Source of the DNA: Candidatus Hermodarchaeota archaeon
Lineage (GTDB): Archaea; Asgardarchaeota; Heimdallarchaeia; Hodarchaeales; Hodarchaeaceae
NCBI GenBank assembly: GCA_048886185.1
Contig: JBHLKY010000013.1
Location: 114,787 to 124,705 of the forward strand
DNA length: 9,919 bases
Direction of reading: 5' to 3'
Shown: positions 3,126-9,919 of the stretch, in pieces
Position numbering within the stretch: position 1 is the first letter of the stretch
How the letters are laid out: each line of letters begins with the position of its first letter
Notes under the pieces: generated by a model
What the model was told of the DNA's origin: nothing
Seen by the model: the letters and a program-made list of their open reading frames with translations, nothing else
Databases searched by the model: none
Position numbers and translations under genes: made by a program

Positions 3126-3440
3126 TTAATGATAGATGGCCTGGTCTTCAAATAAATAGGGAAATCCGCCCTTTTTCTTTATCCGCTCAAGTACCTTTCT
3201 TGACCAGATTAACACTGGATTTTTAGAACACGGTTGTTTGAATACTCTTTGAATTCTAAATATCGAATCAGTTTCTTGCTTTTCCGTCTTCCAGAAAGAT
3301 GCTAGGGCCTCAGTGAGATCCCAAGCTTCAGCAGCAGAAGATGCAGAAATAAACGCGCAATTATCCATTTTTTTGTTATCAAAGATAAGTGTATATTTAG
3401 CGCAATAAATTTTCTCTCTCAATTCGTTTGTAGACATCAT
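3126..3440 (-). CDS. Hypothetical protein (~103-104 aa)
   Basis: ORF with AAGGA RBS (3449-3445) before tandem ATG ATG; spacing favours the ATG at 3437. It converges on isf. No recognised domain. Confidence 0.7.
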   Translation of the reverse strand: MMSTNELREKIYCAKYTLIFDNKKMDNCAFISASSAAEAWDLTEALASFWKTEKQETDSIFRIQRVFKQPCSKNPVLIWSRKVLERIKKKGGFPYLFEDQAIYH

Positions 3441-3704
3441 TCATTCCTTAAGAAATCTCTTCTCTAGTTTTTTTTAATACTAACATGATTCAACTAACAC
3501 ATGATAGGCGATTTGATTGTTTACCTAAAGTTTCATCTTATAAAATTGTGCACGAAAAAAAAAAATGGTTATTCAGTCAGTACTTGGGATTCACTTCTTC
3601 AATTTACCAAAAAGAGAATCTATGCATGTACTTAAATTTATTATCATTATTATCCAGAATAAATCTCTGTTGTTGAAGCCTCGTTAATATTCTGACATTT
3701 TTGA

Positions 3705-3723: not shown

Positions 3724-3776
3724 TAAAACCTGCAATAAGAGATATAACTCCTCTAATCCTTTTATTGGTGATCTAC

Positions 3777-4460
3777 ATGTTCCTAAGAGTACTAACAAAG
3801 AAAGAACAACAAATTCTGTTGAGAATCCAAGAATTCGTAAGGAGGTGCCATGCCAGAAGCGACTCCCATGACTATTCCCATGTCTTTATGGTTACACGAA
3901 CAGCTATACAAATTGGTAAAAGTATAAGTGACCAAGTAGACCCTTTTATAGTTATTGCAGGCTCATTGCTTCACGACATTGGAAAAACAACTTCTAATTT
4001 TGCGGGGTTTCACGGATTGTTTGGAGGTAGCATTGCTGAGGAATTCTTAGAAGGATTGGAAATAGATGATAAAACAAGTAACAAGATCTGTCGTGTAGTG
4101 ATACGACATACACCTACATCGGGCATACCTCCTGAAACACCAGAGGAGAAAGTGGTTTATGATGCTGACACACTTGATCGGTTAGGATTAATGGGATTAT
4201 TACGAGGATTTATCGGGAAAGAAGGATCAATGCAGGATATCCTTGAAACCTATATGAATCGGCGCCAATTAGACTATGAAAAACTTAATTATGAATATTC
4301 ACGCGAATTAGGAATGATGGGAGCCCAAGAATTAGAGGGATTTTCTCATGTCATCCAAAAGCGCCTTGATGATCGGATGAGTTCAATTGAGGGCATTTTT
4401 GAGAAGGAAGGGCTTCTAGAGAAACATCAAACAGTAAAAACTAGAAAAAAGAGTAAGTAA
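3777..4460 (+). CDS. HD-domain metal-dependent phosphohydrolase
   Basis: SHDYSHV (first His), LLHDIGK (HD), IRH and YDADTLD (terminal Asp) motifs. ATG at 3777 follows GGTGA. Confidence 0.9.
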   Translation: MFLRVLTKKEQQILLRIQEFVRRCHARSDSHDYSHVFMVTRTAIQIGKSISDQVDPFIVIAGSLLHDIGKTTSNFAGFHGLFGGSIAEEFLEGLEIDDKTSNKICRVVIRHTPTSGIPPETPEEKVVYDADTLDRLGLMGLLRGFIGKEGSMQDILETYMNRRQLDYEKLNYEYSRELGMMGAQELEGFSHVIQKRLDDRMSSIEGIFEKEGLLEKHQTVKTRKKSK

Positions 4461-4703: not shown

Positions 4704-7085
4704 TTAATGCCACACATTGGTTTCTGATAAAGGAATACCTTTCGCAATTTTTCTTTGATCTTCACTGATTCCTTTAAACATCTCCTCAACTAGCTCTTCT
4801 CCTACACTTATTCTACTAATTTGATGGTGGCTTCCATTTGTTGTAGAGGAGATAATTTTAGTTACAGCGAAACCATAAGTTTCCCTTCCAGCATAGTGAG
4901 GATTTGTATTCACTACTGTAGTGTGAATTCCCTCCTTTTTAATTAATTTTGAAACAGAGATAACATCTTTAACGGCTAAATCCTCAAATTGTCTTAGTGC
5001 TATACCTACATCTTTAAACTGACGGACTTCTCCAGTCTCTAGACTTCGGTAAAGTGGCACGTTCGCGTTACCATCAGTTACGATAACCATTACTGGTATT
5101 GTTGCTTTATCTCTACGTCTAGCCTCTCTTAAAACTTCGCGTGCTTTCAACATACCAGCTGCCAAAGGAGTAAAACCACTAATTTTCAATCCTAACAATT
5201 TATTTGCCACCACTCCAAGATTGGTAATGGGATGTTGAACTACGACAGCTCTGGTGTCTTTAAGGGCCACGATTCCTACTTTATCTCGGTATCGATAGGC
5301 ATCTCTGTGTAATTTCAATAAAGCTTCTTTACTAGCCTCAATACTGAACATCATAGATCCACTTAGATCAATGACGAAAACAAATGTTAAAGGGGCTTTA
5401 TAGATCCTAAATTTCTCTCGAACATCCAGTAGGGATATAGAAAGAGTTGTTTCAAGAGATGGTTCACGATATCTTTGTTTTTTCGCTGCAGCCCTGATAG
5501 TCGCTGGTAAATGGATATCCGCTGGTTTGCCTTTCGGAATTTTCCAGCCCCATGGGCGACCTCGATGAAGAGTCGTTAATGTCTCCGCTCGTTTTCCTGG
5601 TAGACTACTAACTCCTCTAATAGATGATTTTTTAATATCAGGAGGTTTGAACGGTGATAAAATACTGTCTTTAATCTTTGAAAGTAACGTGTTACCTTTA
5701 GTCATTTCTGAGGATTTTAGTGCCAAACTAGTTGTAGGAATTCCCTTTAAATCACCTTTATCATGCTTTTCGGAAGTTTCACCTCTTATGCTGTCAGATC
5801 CCTTTGTATAACCATCAAGTAGGGGAGCATCACTAGGGCTTTTCTTCATTTTTTTCCCAAGGGCAAAACTTGGACTAATTCTACTAAAAAACTGAAAAAT
5901 CCTGGCTCGTGCCTTACTTACTTTTTTCTCTACTATTTTCTCTTCTTTATCAGTTGCATCTTCTGTAGCCCAAATTACAGTTCTACCTTTTGGTTTATTT
6001 CGCTTTTTTTTTTTATCTGTCTCTGATGATTCGATCTTTTCTACGTATTTTACTTCTTTTATTTTTGCTTTGAGTACCTCTGAGATTTCCTGTGGAGTGG
6101 CAGGATCTAAAAATCCTCCCTCTCTCGTTCTGTGACTCAACGTAAGCTCGGAAGCGATTAGAATATCGTTCGGAGTAACTATTGTTCTATTTTCGAATGC
6201 AGCTAATGTACAGGCAGTTTTACTGATTACTATGTCTGGTCTCATTCCGTCGACTTTAAGATCTAGACAGGTTCGACATATTGATTCTAGAAGTTTTTCT
6301 GGCATTTCCACGTTAGGTAGAATCTCTCTCGCCTGAACAATACGTTTTTTTAGCTCTTCCTGACTTCTTGTAATTTTTTCGATAAAACTCTGGGGATTAG
6401 CCTCAAACTCCAGACTTCTTCTAACTACTTCCATTCGATCTTCAACTGTCAGAATTCTTTCAACACTCACTGATAATGAAAAGCGATCTAAGAGTTGTGG
6501 GCGTAGTTGTCCCTCCTCTGGGTTCATTGTACCAATAAAAACAAACCTAGATGGATGACGAACTGATATTCCTTCCCTTTCAACTACATTCCATCCTGTT
6601 GCAGCAGCATCTAATAAGTCATCAGCGACATGATCAGGTAGTAGATTGACTTCATCTACATATAAAATATTCTGATTGGCCTCTGCAAGAATCCCTGGTT
6701 CTAGAGCACCTATTCCATGTTTGATTGCTTTTTCAACATTTAAACTACCAACGACACGATCCTCTGTCGCTCCGAGGGGAAGATCCACAACAACCATTTC
6801 CCGTTCTTCTGTTTTAAGTTGTCCATTTTGGTATTGTTCAATACACTTTTCACACATATTGGTGAGGTCATGTGGATTACAATTAAAAGAGCATCCTTTC
6901 ACAATTTCCAGCTTTGGGAGAATATCCGTTAATCCTCTTGCAACAGTTGTTTTTCCAGAGCCTTTAGGCCCTTGGATTAGAACTCCTCCTATTTTGGGAT
7001 TAATAGCATTAACTAGGATAGCTAATTTTAGCTCATCCATTGCTACGATAGCCGCGAATGGAAAAGAAACTCTTTTTTTTAGCAT
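4704..7085 (-). CDS. chlD: ChlI/ChlD-family chelatase subunit: N-terminal AAA+ ATPase, linker, C-terminal vWA domain
   Basis: FPFAAIV...[14 protein letters not shown] (Walker A), [23 protein letters not shown] (Walker B), [13 protein letters not shown] (Arg finger), HR at the end of the ChlI-like domain. vWA MIDAS motifs [13 protein letters not shown] and VTDG. AGGGA RBS at 7098-7094. Confidence 0.92.
6004..6014 (-). other. A11 homopolymer containing A_AAA_AAG, a candidate recoding site in chlD
   Basis: mRNA reads GAT AAA AAA AAA AAG CGA AAT (D357-K358-K361-R362). The -1 frame stops at TAA 5997-5995 and the +1 frame at TAA 5977-5975. Confidence 0.55.
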
Positions 7086-7340
7086 AGAATATTTCCCTGA
7101 AAAACACCCCCTTACAGTTCATTATTATTCCTTTTGTTATATGAAAGAAAAAGAAATCTTATTCTATTATTTTCAAATCCCCAAAATAAAATGCTAAAAG
7201 ATCATAAACATTGCCATATTAACTAGCCTTATTTGTGCAATTGGATATTTTCTAGTATTGATTTATGGGCCATCCAAATTCACGTTAATCCTTCAAGCAG
7301 TGAAAAAATCAAGCCAACCATCCCAAATGAGGATCACAAA

Positions 7341-8552
7341 ATGGAAATCCGTCAGCTTACTTCTGAAGACCGAGAAGCTTTTGCTCGCTTAACACGATAT
7401 GCATTTGAGCCAGCACGAAATACCTATGAAGGTGTTGTCCCAGAAGATTATGAAGAAACTCAGCCACATCTTAAAGATATGAGTCAAGTTTACGGGTGTT
7501 TTGACAAGGATAAATTGGTTTCTTCCTGCGCATTTTTTACCTCAACAGTCGTAATTAGAAAAAAAGAATTTCCAATGTCAGGTCTATGGGGAGTAGCGAC
7601 CGCGCCTCACTATCGTAATCAAGGCCTTGTTCAGAAAACCCTACATAAGATGATGAAAGAAATGAAAGACACAGGAATTCTAATCTCCTGTTTGTATCCT
7701 TTCAAGTTTTCATTTTATGAAAAATATGGCTGGAAACTTGCAAATATAAATCATCGTTACCATATTGAACTAGATAAATTCATTTCGCGACCTATTCTCG
7801 ATAGAACAGTTCGCGAAGTGAACTCTCTTGATGATATAAAATTAGTCTACTCAAACATTGCAGGCATTAAGTACAACTATATGGTGAAACGCAGGGAGGA
7901 GGATTGGCGCCGAAAGGTCAATCCCAAAGAACCAGGTTATTTATTTGTGTGCTATGATGCCAATGATGACCCCTGTGGGTATTTGATTGCAAGATTCTTG
8001 GAACACCAACCACCAAGTGATGAAGGAGTGGAACACAGTGCTCAAACAATTTATTTATCAGAGATTTTTTGGTATGATCGGAAAACCAAACAGGCTTTGT
8101 TTAACTTCCTTAGAAGACATGTAGATCATCGAAAATATGTTGTATTTTCCACACCTGACCCCAATGTTTTGAATTCGCTCATTGAAGCTAGGATTGAAGC
8201 CAATGAAGTCTTCCCCGCTTCTATGATGCGAATTGTAGATATAAAAGCTGTTTTTGAAGCTCTAGATTACTCTGAGAATTTAGAATTTATTTTGAAGGTA
8301 AAAGATCAATTCTGTACTTGGAATGATAAAACCTTTAAAGTAAATATTTGGGGGGGGAAAGCTAAACTTGAGGAAACAACGAAATCTTCGGATATTACTA
8401 TTGATATTGGTTCTCTATCACAAATGGTTGTGGGTTTCAGAACTGCTTCTCAATTATATGATTCATGGGAGATAGACTGTCCAGAAGAGATCCTTCCAGT
8501 ACTCAATCAACTATATCCTGCACAAACAAACTTTTATCGAGACTTCTTCTGA
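7341..8552 (+). CDS. eis: Eis-family acetyltransferase (GNAT-GNAT-SCP2)
   Basis: VATAPHYRNQGL acetyl-CoA motif A, LYPFKFSFYEKYGW, MMRIVD, an SCP2-like C-terminus and terminal RDFF. ATG at 7341, after GAGGA (7329-7333), is preferred over the track start at 7233. Confidence 0.92.
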   Translation: MEIRQLTSEDREAFARLTRYAFEPARNTYEGVVPEDYEETQPHLKDMSQVYGCFDKDKLVSSCAFFTSTVVIRKKEFPMSGLWGVATAPHYRNQGLVQKTLHKMMKEMKDTGILISCLYPFKFSFYEKYGWKLANINHRYHIELDKFISRPILDRTVREVNSLDDIKLVYSNIAGIKYNYMVKRREEDWRRKVNPKEPGYLFVCYDANDDPCGYLIARFLEHQPPSDEGVEHSAQTIYLSEIFWYDRKTKQALFNFLRRHVDHRKYVVFSTPDPNVLNSLIEARIEANEVFPASMMRIVDIKAVFEALDYSENLEFILKVKDQFCTWNDKTFKVNIWGGKAKLEETTKSSDITIDIGSLSQMVVGFRTASQLYDSWEIDCPEEILPVLNQLYPAQTNFYRDFF

Positions 8553-9046: not shown

Positions 9047-9919
9047 CTATGCAGTTATCTTGACTCCTTTTTCCCACAACCTTTGAATGATCTTCTCAGA
9101 TTTTTTATTCAATTGATTCAACCCCACATCTAAATAATGGAGTTTAGATAGTTTCAGGAGAGTAATAGGAAGAGATATTAGCTGATTATCACGTAAAATT
9201 AATTCTCGAAGATTTTCAAGATTTCCTATTGTGTAAGGAAGAGAGGTTAAGTTATTTGACCTCATATAAAGAACTCGTAACGATTTAAGATTACCTAAAG
9301 AGCTTGGTAGCGATATTAATTGGTTATGATATAGGTCAAAAAACCAAAGTTTCCAAAGGGACCCAATAGAGTCAGGAAGAGTTGTTAACTGATTATCACG
9401 AATACTCAGTTTCTCAAGATTGGTGAGATTTCCAATGCTTTCTGGCAAGAGTGATAACTTATTATCAGAAAGATTTAATTCAATTAATCTTGTAAACTCT
9501 TGAAATGGTATCCCTGACAGAGATTCCAATTGATTATGTTCTAAATTTAATTTCTTTAAATTTTTTAGCCTTTTGAATGTTTCAGGGAGTGAATGTAAGT
9601 AATTAAAGCCTAAAGAAAGTGATTCAAGATGCTTCAAACCTCCAATAGTAGTAGGCAGTGATGTCAATCGATTAACATCTAATTTGAGTACTCTTATGTT
9701 TATAAATTTATCAATGCTTTCAGGAATTGAGGTTAATTCATTATTGGTTAAATACAATTGTTCTAGGAGTTCACATCGGTTAATATCAGGAAATTTCACT
9801 AAATTCCTACCAATTAAATTTATTTTCAATGTGTTCAGAATCCTGAAAAACAATAATGCATCTTTCCATTCTTTCTTAAGAATAATTACTAAATTTTGTG
9901 AGAAACTTCCACTATCAAA
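9047..9919 (-). CDS. Leucine-rich repeat protein, 5' end beyond the right edge
   Basis: About 10 tandem 23-aa repeats LxxLxLxxNxLxxLPxxIGxL. The frame stays open for 22 more codons upstream of the track's TTG 9853 (FDSGSFSQNLVIILKKEWKDAL), to the window end, so 9853 is probably not the start. Confidence 0.92.
   Translation of the reverse strand, partial: FDSGSFSQNLVIILKKEWKDALLFFRILNTLKINLIGRNLVKFPDINRCELLEQLYLTNNELTSIPESIDKFINIRVLKLDVNRLTSLPTTIGGLKHLESLSLGFNYLHSLPETFKRLKNLKKLNLEHNQLESLSGIPFQEFTRLIELNLSDNKLSLLPESIGNLTNLEKLSIRDNQLTTLPDSIGSLWKLWFFDLYHNQLISLPSSLGNLKSLRVLYMRSNNLTSLPYTIGNLENLRELILRDNQLISLPITLLKLSKLHYLDVGLNQLNKKSEKIIQRLWEKGVKITA

Follow-up and report, generated by a model that had tools for sequence, protein, structure and literature searches.

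A conserved poly-A run in a chlD-like gene of an Asgard archaeon: an apparent in-frame allele of the frameshifted chlD family

We describe here a chlD-like gene in a 9,919-nucleotide (nt) stretch of DNA from Candidatus Hermodarchaeota archaeon (contig JBHLKY010000013.1, positions 114,787 to 124,705; the whole stretch is called the window below), and in particular a run of eleven A's (A11) on its mRNA strand, at the boundary between the ChlI-type AAA+ ATPase module and the linker that leads to the vWA domain. Judged by its sequence and by those of its relatives, the gene appears to be an in-frame allele of the published frameshifted-chlD (fs-chlD) recoding family. Standard decoding would give the complete ChlD-like protein of 793 amino acids (aa), with AAA+ module, linker and vWA domain, and a one-base slip on the run would give a ChlI-sized ATPase, since both alternative frames stop 2 to 9 codons past it. 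The slip could be made by RNA polymerase, with an A gained or lost in the transcript, or by ribosomes moving -1 on the heptamer A_AAA_AAG. This reading is carried by the conservation of the run, by the frame junctions of split relatives, which lie at the run, and by purifying selection on both halves of the gene, all of which are seen directly in the sequence data.

The A11 run and its off-frame stops

The gene occupies a single frame and is the sole long open reading frame (ORF) of its region (Table 1). The run supplies codons 358-361, AAA AAA AAA AAG (K358-K361), and begins about 24 residues past the end of AAA_lid_2. Past the run the -1 frame reads GCG AAA TAA, for a predicted product of 363 aa, which would be reached by a -1 ribosomal slip or through insertion of one more A into the mRNA. 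In the +1 frame S-E-I-N-Q-K-V-E-L is followed by TAA, for a predicted product of 369 aa; it would be made from an mRNA carrying ten A's (A10), which is the run length and frame of the split orthologs described below, and it has the same frame as, and a tail nearly identical to, the zero-frame ChlI-like products of such orthologs (P0125, and P0130, which ends in ...KKKSEINRKAEP). Since solved ChlI chains are 350-380 aa long and align to residues 4-330, products of 363 and 369 aa are both ChlI-sized. A preliminary description of this DNA had placed the run at 6014-6004, in codons 358-361, and had given the same two product lengths, and every one of these numbers is correct by sequence, ORF and translation. 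Its remark that no longer homopolymer was found in any coding sequence of the window can be given one small correction: the window contains a second A11, at 3555-3565 (C13:118341-118351), but this one is intergenic, between the ORFs 3126-3440(-) and 3765-4460(+).

Exactly eleven A's are found in per-run assemblies from each of three sequencing runs, at depths of 19-33; the three runs may be source samples, so their agreement on A11 tests the reproducibility of the assembly and not independence. The exact 793-aa protein is recorded on 5 contigs. Run X5, a mangrove metagenome from another study, gives a 249-nt contig over 5880-6130 with one substitution and a run 2 nt shorter (A9), which would place the downstream half in the +1 frame; its depth is only 2.2, the difference may be an error, and it is left unused as evidence.

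Table 1. The chlD-like gene, its parts and the poly-A site, in window positions
Feature	Position	Strand	Basis or remark
ChlD-like full-length ORF: ChlI-type AAA+ module, long Lys/Glu-rich linker, vWA	4704..7085	-	ORF list, translation, Pfam, NCBIfam
ChlI-type AAA+ ATPase module, residues 1 to ~345	6051..7085	-	translation, Pfam, PDB alignment
A11 homopolymer on the mRNA strand, codons 358-361; proposed slippage site	6004..6014	-	sequence
Heptamer A_AAA_AAG in the zero-frame phase needed for a tandem -1 ribosomal slip	6003..6009	-	sequence and frame
Linker, from run to vWA, residues 362-568	5382..6002	-	protein alignment, 120 homologs
-1 frame TAA stop	5995..5997	-	would end the 363-aa product ...KKKKAK
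+1 frame TAA stop	5975..5977	-	would end the 369-aa product; route: mRNA with one A fewer
vWA domain, residues 569-681	5043..5381	-	Pfam VWA_2, E 5.6e-12; BchD vWA chain 2x31_A aligns to residues 567-679

Runs of this kind are rare in the coding sequence of the organism. The genome to which the window belongs (G000; 4.84 Mb in 75 contigs, 96% complete, 35% GC) contains 45 A/T runs at least 10 nt long, almost all between genes, and in its 2,682 ORFs of at least 200 aa an A run on the sense strand reaches that length only three times. Lys codons are 73% AAA, which leads one to expect that 39% of KKK motifs are written entirely in AAA; the observed figure is 19 of 392 (4.8%), an eight-fold depletion. 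At KKKK motifs in the same ORFs, AAA-AAA-AAA-AAG is used once in 47, in the chlD-like gene, and four AAA codons in none of the 47. This genome-wide avoidance of poly-A Lys coding suggests that slippage on A runs is a real hazard for this Asgard archaeon. In bacteria, selection against A/T runs in coding regions is seen from about 9 nt and has been read as avoidance of transcriptional slippage (Baranov et al., PMC1088944). As G000 purges long A runs from its coding sequence and the chlD-like gene is the exception, its run is not incidental. Among the long ORFs of this genome only one more sense A11 occurs, in a 353-aa ORF at G000:C14:94883-95941(-), where it is read in frame as ...QEKKKEIKE...; it could be a second slippage-prone coding site.

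Run-bearing and split relatives

A homolog search for the G000 gene in the genomes of 60 relatives gave six orthologs, 62-80% identical and all from the same genus; source labels of the close homologs include Heimdallarchaeota and Promethearchaeota, by which the genus is judged to be an Asgard lineage. Two of the six (G010 and G021) are single-frame genes like that of the window, and the other four (G014, G008, G011 and G016) are split at query residues ~349-391. With six split genes from metagenomes or other assemblies (L099, L120, L121, L122, L123 and L126), all having A10 at the junction, and with G000 itself, 13 members of this clade were examined as DNA, and A10 or A11 stands at the ChlI/linker boundary in all 13; L124, from the species of G011, likewise has A10. 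Each of the seven genus genes (G000 and its six orthologs) contains exactly one A10/A11 run, always at this boundary. The run is found at codon ~358 ('site 1') in G000, G010, G021, G014 and G008, and ~28 codons further on ('site 2') in G011 and G016. The left edge of the site-1 run varies as well, with GAT before A11 and GACC, GAAG, GAT or ACTC before A10, and G008 is without the G that follows the run elsewhere. Pairwise synonymous divergence (dS) is 1.1 to >3 for all pairs, so that synonymous sites are saturated. The variable left edges and the two run positions imply that it is the length of the run that has been kept, rather than identity by descent. The in-phase A_AAA_AAG is also present in the other two in-frame orthologs, G010 and G021. 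The preliminary description had listed loss or break-up of the run in orthologs among the findings that would refute its proposal; despite dS above 1 none of the 13 has done so, and the slippery site appears to be conserved among orthologs under purifying selection.

Frame junctions are equally consistent. The gene is split at the run in 10 of the 13 clade members, and the vWA half then always lies in the -1 frame and never in the +1 frame. In split genes the zero frame stops ~9-14 codons past the run, and the -1 frame of all those checked has a stop at the run or no more than ~8 codons upstream of it, which leaves the run as the only place where the frame can change. More split forms with the same tails are known as proteins (P0121, P0125, P0127, P0128 and P0153), and P0131 is identical on 10 contigs. 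In the databases the split relatives are annotated as two genes, an 'ATP-binding protein' and a 'VWA domain-containing protein'. Their C-terminal halves form intact frames of 396-434 codons with a ratio of non-synonymous to synonymous substitution (dN/dS) of 0.06-0.17, like the in-frame genes, which rules out that the split orthologs are pseudogenes.

How the second half is reached in such genes was a point to be weighed, since gene callers begin the second gene of site-1 split genes at a 4-nt NTGA overlap, as would suit separate, translationally coupled ChlI-like and vWA genes. We rejected coupling as the main route. Across the 8 codons from the run to the NTG in site-1 split orthologs, the ratio of synonymous to non-synonymous codon changes is 17:11 for the -1 frame and 4:27 for the zero frame, in counts that use non-independent pairs and few codons; G014 and G008, for instance, are separated by three third-position changes, which fall in -1-frame codons for P, G and R. 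The site-2 genes have the family-wide motif RFFRFLSRISPVFG immediately behind the run, again in the -1 frame. In L122 and L124 every ATG, GTG or TTG lies beyond RFFRFLSRISPVFG, and gene callers pass over 63-96 nt of this conserved frame. Moreover, a run that merely caused the split would decay at saturated dS, and since it has been kept everywhere coupling is disfavoured. We conclude that the split relatives are genuine frameshift-dependent genes.

In a tree of the N-terminal domain, 16 run-less single-frame genes fall in one supported clade (97/94), with all run-bearing genes outside it. The supported order among the latter is G000 in-frame, P0121 split, G010 in-frame and G014/P0125/P0130 split (supports 98/96 and 100/99), and at least two changes of frame state are forced on the tree. 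From the wider family 80 metagenome loci were compared: in 79 of them the gene is single-frame and the longest A run of the linker is 4-9, and the sole split locus, L099, is the one with A10. The run-less clade includes P0028, whose KKKK at the corresponding position is written AAA AAG AAA AAA, so that its longest run is A6. The run-less homologs (P0003-P0120, L040-L119) are abundant, 60-75% identical and mostly labelled Bathyarchaeia, and the run-bearing copies are labelled Asgard; this pattern suggests either gene transfer between the two archaeal groups or mislabelled bins. Also in the wider family, P0136, P0139, P0140 and P0147 are short forms with long aberrant tails and no preceding poly-Lys run, which may reflect frame breaks elsewhere or assembly errors.

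Slippage and its alternatives

In the proposed mechanism the split relatives are the reverse of the window gene: their genome encodes the short form and slippage would make the long one, with one A added to the mRNA restoring the single frame. Both types of allele would then give the same two proteins in different ratios, which by analogy might be compared with the ChlI and ChlD rings. As to the slipping enzyme, the sequences incline us slightly toward RNA polymerase, with the ribosome almost as probable, because 10-11 A's have been kept although a ribosomal slip needs only seven, and because no stimulators were found. The run also has what is looked for in a site of polymerase realignment, being an A/T run of at least ~9 nt in a coding region that is conserved against genome-wide avoidance.

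Several points weigh against the proposal. The full-length protein needs no slip in this allele, and the short form could be noise that the cell tolerates. Single-frame fusions without a run make up most of the wider family, which is largely labelled Bathyarchaeia; as such fusions are common, a separate ChlI-like subunit is evidently not obligatory for this type of protein. The codon counts that favour the -1 frame have the narrow base given above. No significant fold was found in the 100 nt downstream of the run in any of the seven genus genes, with z from -0.19 (window) to -1.7, and five aligned site-1 sequences gave no convincing covarying helix (consensus -4.55 kcal/mol, with a positive covariation term); these seven single folds and one alignment fold agree with the earlier impression of only weak downstream structure. 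Nor is any conserved Shine-Dalgarno (SD)-like element visible upstream of the run in the aligned genus genes. We know of no measured slippage on A10 or A11 in Asgard archaea, whether by RNA polymerase or by ribosomes. With all this taken into account, it still seems to us probable that two proteins are made from this in-frame allele; a useful amount of the short form would then be expected, and the two products may assemble with each other.

The alternative that survives best, which we nevertheless consider unlikely, is that the site is a relic: the gain of one A (A10 to A11) mended an ancestral split gene, the cell now depends on the full-length protein alone, the short products are unused, and the run persists for lack of time or because the Lys residues are under weak constraint. 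Such a history would accord with the gene being in frame, with the predominance of run-less single-frame fusions in the wider family, and with the nesting of in-frame run-bearing genes among split ones on the tree, as split ancestry would predict. However, the separately placed genes of G000, G010 and G021 have all kept A10 or A11 together with the in-phase A_AAA_AAG, at dS of at least 1.3, and G000 has otherwise cleared its coding sequence of such runs. In Escherichia coli reporters 63% of the product was shifted at a run this long (PMC3711429), which would make the run costly to retain if the short form were useless.

Somewhat less likely again is phase variation at the level of DNA, in which lineages would change heritably, by replication slippage, from one fused gene to a ChlI-like and vWA pair and back, so that no recoding by polymerase or ribosome is needed. 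Frame state does vary among close relatives, with its two or more flips on the tree, the 4-nt NTGA overlap of the site-1 split orthologs would allow coupled re-initiation, and the X5 contig, one substitution away, has a run 2 nt shorter. Against this, the X5 contig has the low depth noted above and may be in error, whereas the three per-run assemblies agree on A11 and P0131 is the same on all of its 10 contigs. All 10 split genes show the -1 relation and none the +1, the -1 frame is selected upstream of the NTGA codon (17:11 against 4:27, with the same caution), and near the junction of L122 and L124 there is no start codon, so that callers have to skip 63-96 nt. Pairs that differ in frame state have dS above 1, unlike the rapid switching of contingency loci. 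Finally, the view that the run arose by chance from Lys codons in AT-rich DNA, or by misassembly of a homopolymer, with the off-frame stops as background, has in its favour the 35% GC, the 73% AAA usage, the Lys/Glu-rich linker and a +1-frame stop that arises from conserved (M/V/L)-I-W codons and so is partly a by-product of protein conservation, but it is already contradicted, and we think it very improbable indeed, in face of the strong avoidance of such runs in ORFs, their presence in 13/13 clade members against 0/79 loci outside the clade, and the recovery of A11 in three assemblies and of the exact protein on 5 contigs.

Domains, gene context and known systems

The 793-aa protein matches Pfam AAA_5, Mg_chelatase, AAA_lid_2 (residues 267-334) and VWA_2. 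The motifs of the AAA+ module are readily visible in the translation (Walker A GPKGSGKT, Walker B YVDE, TMNPEEG and LLDRF), and solved ChlI/BchI chains in the PDB (350-380 aa) align to residues 4-330 with E of 1e-84 to 1e-99. Between Walker A and Walker B lies a Cys4 insert (C-x4-C ... C-x2-C; 6843-6896(-), residues ~64-81) that may be a zinc-binding element. In the alignment of 120 homologs the linker starts with a conserved segment, KR-x-KPKGR-x-x-IW, and contains a second conserved motif further on; Pfam PF26791 'AAPxQ' is annotated on the C-terminal halves of homologs. The best NCBIfam model is TIGR02442, 'putative cobaltochelatase' (ChlI-ChlD type), at 601 bits against a cut-off of 779, followed by TIGR02030 (BchI-ChlI) at 388 against 467 and the BchD-ChlD model at 344 against 500, so that all three equivalog cut-offs are missed.

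The window shows the gene as monocistronic, with a divergent GNAT-type ORF of 439 aa (7233-8552(+)) on one side and a convergent HD-domain-like ORF (3765-4460(+)) on the other. This neighbourhood is conserved only in part. On the contig of the split ortholog P0121 the same divergent position holds a 403-aa Eis-like GNAT protein (Acetyltransf_9, Acetyltransf_17, SCP2_2), and in L121 it holds a NUDIX gene. A leucine-rich-repeat protein is encoded in the window at 9047-9853(-), and an Arf/Ras/Roc-type small GTPase adjoins the split ortholog in L123 (L123:3253-3780); both are of the 'eukaryote-like' kind typical of Asgard archaea, in keeping with the taxonomic placement.

No standalone chlI was found in the 96%-complete G000: a search with residues 1-345 matches only the gene itself, TIGR02030 scores 391 bits for the chlD-like gene and 20 bits for the next best, and the other PF01078 matches are weak and lie in larger or unrelated AAA+ ORFs. 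What the preliminary description had said of the window, that it holds no separate chlI, can therefore be said of the whole assembly, and a second finding that it had named as counting against its proposal, a separate chlI gene, is likewise absent. CobN/ChlH (PF02514) is absent from G000 and from every one of 22 genus genomes in a search whose controls were matched in 5 known genomes, which argues that the protein's role is something other than metal chelation with an H/N subunit. Of the proposal that one gene makes both chelatase AAA+ subunits, the slippage part is thus supported, with the run kept and 10 of 13 genes split at it, and the chelatase part is not; 'chelatase subunits' is here a family label, and the protein is probably not a true chelatase.

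Sister species without the ortholog (G002, G004, G006, G012, G018 and G019) have a different arrangement. They encode a standalone ChlI-like ORF of ~350 aa, 47-50% identical, and, 10-15 kb off on the same contig, a ~990-aa protein with AAA+ and vWA matches, 28-39% identical (loci L017-L023 and L028-L039). G011 has both systems, the split ortholog and the pair of ChlI-like and ~990-aa proteins (contig C12).

The device itself was published between 2013 and 2022. A 'magnesium chelatase' recoding cluster of 23 frameshifted genes (fs-genes) with a -1 shift, including members from Methanocaldococcus and Methanococcus, was described by Antonov et al. (2013, PMC3711429), and poly-A cassettes from Mg-chelatase fs-genes gave frameshifting in E. 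coli of 63% for A11, 40% for A9 and 10% for A7 (PMC3711429). A review describes their A_AAA_AAR sites as being under purifying selection (Atkins et al. 2016, PMC5009743). The fs-chlD set was later extended to 169 genes by Antonov (2020) and by Kuznetsov et al. (2022, PMC9227772), among them those of 'stage 1' genomes, which have fs-chlD without chlH or cobN and in which its function is unknown. The window gene shares with fs-chlD the order of ChlI-type AAA+ module and then vWA, an A_AAA_AAR or poly-A of up to A11 at the end of the ChlI-like part, the -1 relation of frames in its split relatives, the lack of a separate chlI and the existence of archaeal members, and its genus, having neither chlH nor cobN, matches the 'stage 1' genomes. 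It differs in that the published criterion is a frame transition in the genome, and the window gene, a single ORF, is by this criterion not an fs-gene; as 10 of 13 clade members do have the transition, it is better described as an in-frame allele in an fs-chlD clade. Published signals are also 'usually' accompanied by downstream structure, which was not found here, and the Asgard clade alternates between in-frame and split alleles and has its run in two positions. Antonov 2020 may already list in-frame alleles with a retained slippery site; the supplement of Kuznetsov et al. 2022 and those papers citing Antonov 2020 that were consulted say nothing on this.

A close parallel for a single-ORF gene is dnaX, with its tau and gamma products, which uses a -1 shift on A_AAA_AAG in one ORF in E. 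coli and transcriptional slippage on A9 in Thermus thermophilus, and of which two-ORF forms with A10 are known (PMC3711429). There too a single AAA+ gene is the source of two proteins, one full-length and one truncated, by way of poly-A or A_AAA_AAG with immediate off-frame stops, and single-ORF and two-ORF forms occur among relatives, the window gene having the polarity of E. coli dnaX; both dnaX products enter one complex. The E. coli shift is stimulated by a stem-loop and an internal SD, neither of which is seen in the window, and dnaX, a clamp-loader gene, is unrelated in family and function. With the class I Mg/Co chelatases (ChlI/BchI, ChlD/BchD, CobS/CobT, ChlI/ChlD with CobN) the likeness is one of domains: solved ChlI/BchI can be aligned over the full length of the N-terminal module, and the vWA domain aligns with BchD. 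They differ from it in the equivalog scores and in having the large H/N subunit that the 22 genus genomes lack. The AAA+ motifs of ChlD are generally regarded as degenerate, whereas those of the 793-aa protein are intact.

These observations can be drawn together in a joint reading, to which we give rather less than even credence. The frame at the boundary would be evolutionarily fluid, buffered by slippage on A10/A11; polymerase slippage would interconvert A11 in-frame and A10 split alleles at the level of RNA, giving the same two proteins; and frame flips and relocation of the run would retune the ratio of short to long form in an H/N-free motor with a function other than chelation. That the same run is found with both frame states, in two positions and with repeated flips, argues that slippage is efficient enough for either state to be viable. 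The clade in this sense offers a natural experiment, with a conserved A10/A11 in genes that are in frame in 3 lineages and split in at least 10, and its paired alleles are available for measuring polymerase against ribosomal slippage.

To our knowledge no case of recoding has been tested in Asgard archaea. For annotation, the in-frame genes would hide a probable second product, and the split relatives are called as two genes. Archaeal recoding in general has been demonstrated for very few genes (PMC8211752). The chlD-like gene and its relatives provide an Asgard case for the question posed by Kuznetsov et al. (2022), namely what a ChlI/ChlD-type motor does without the large chelatase subunit.

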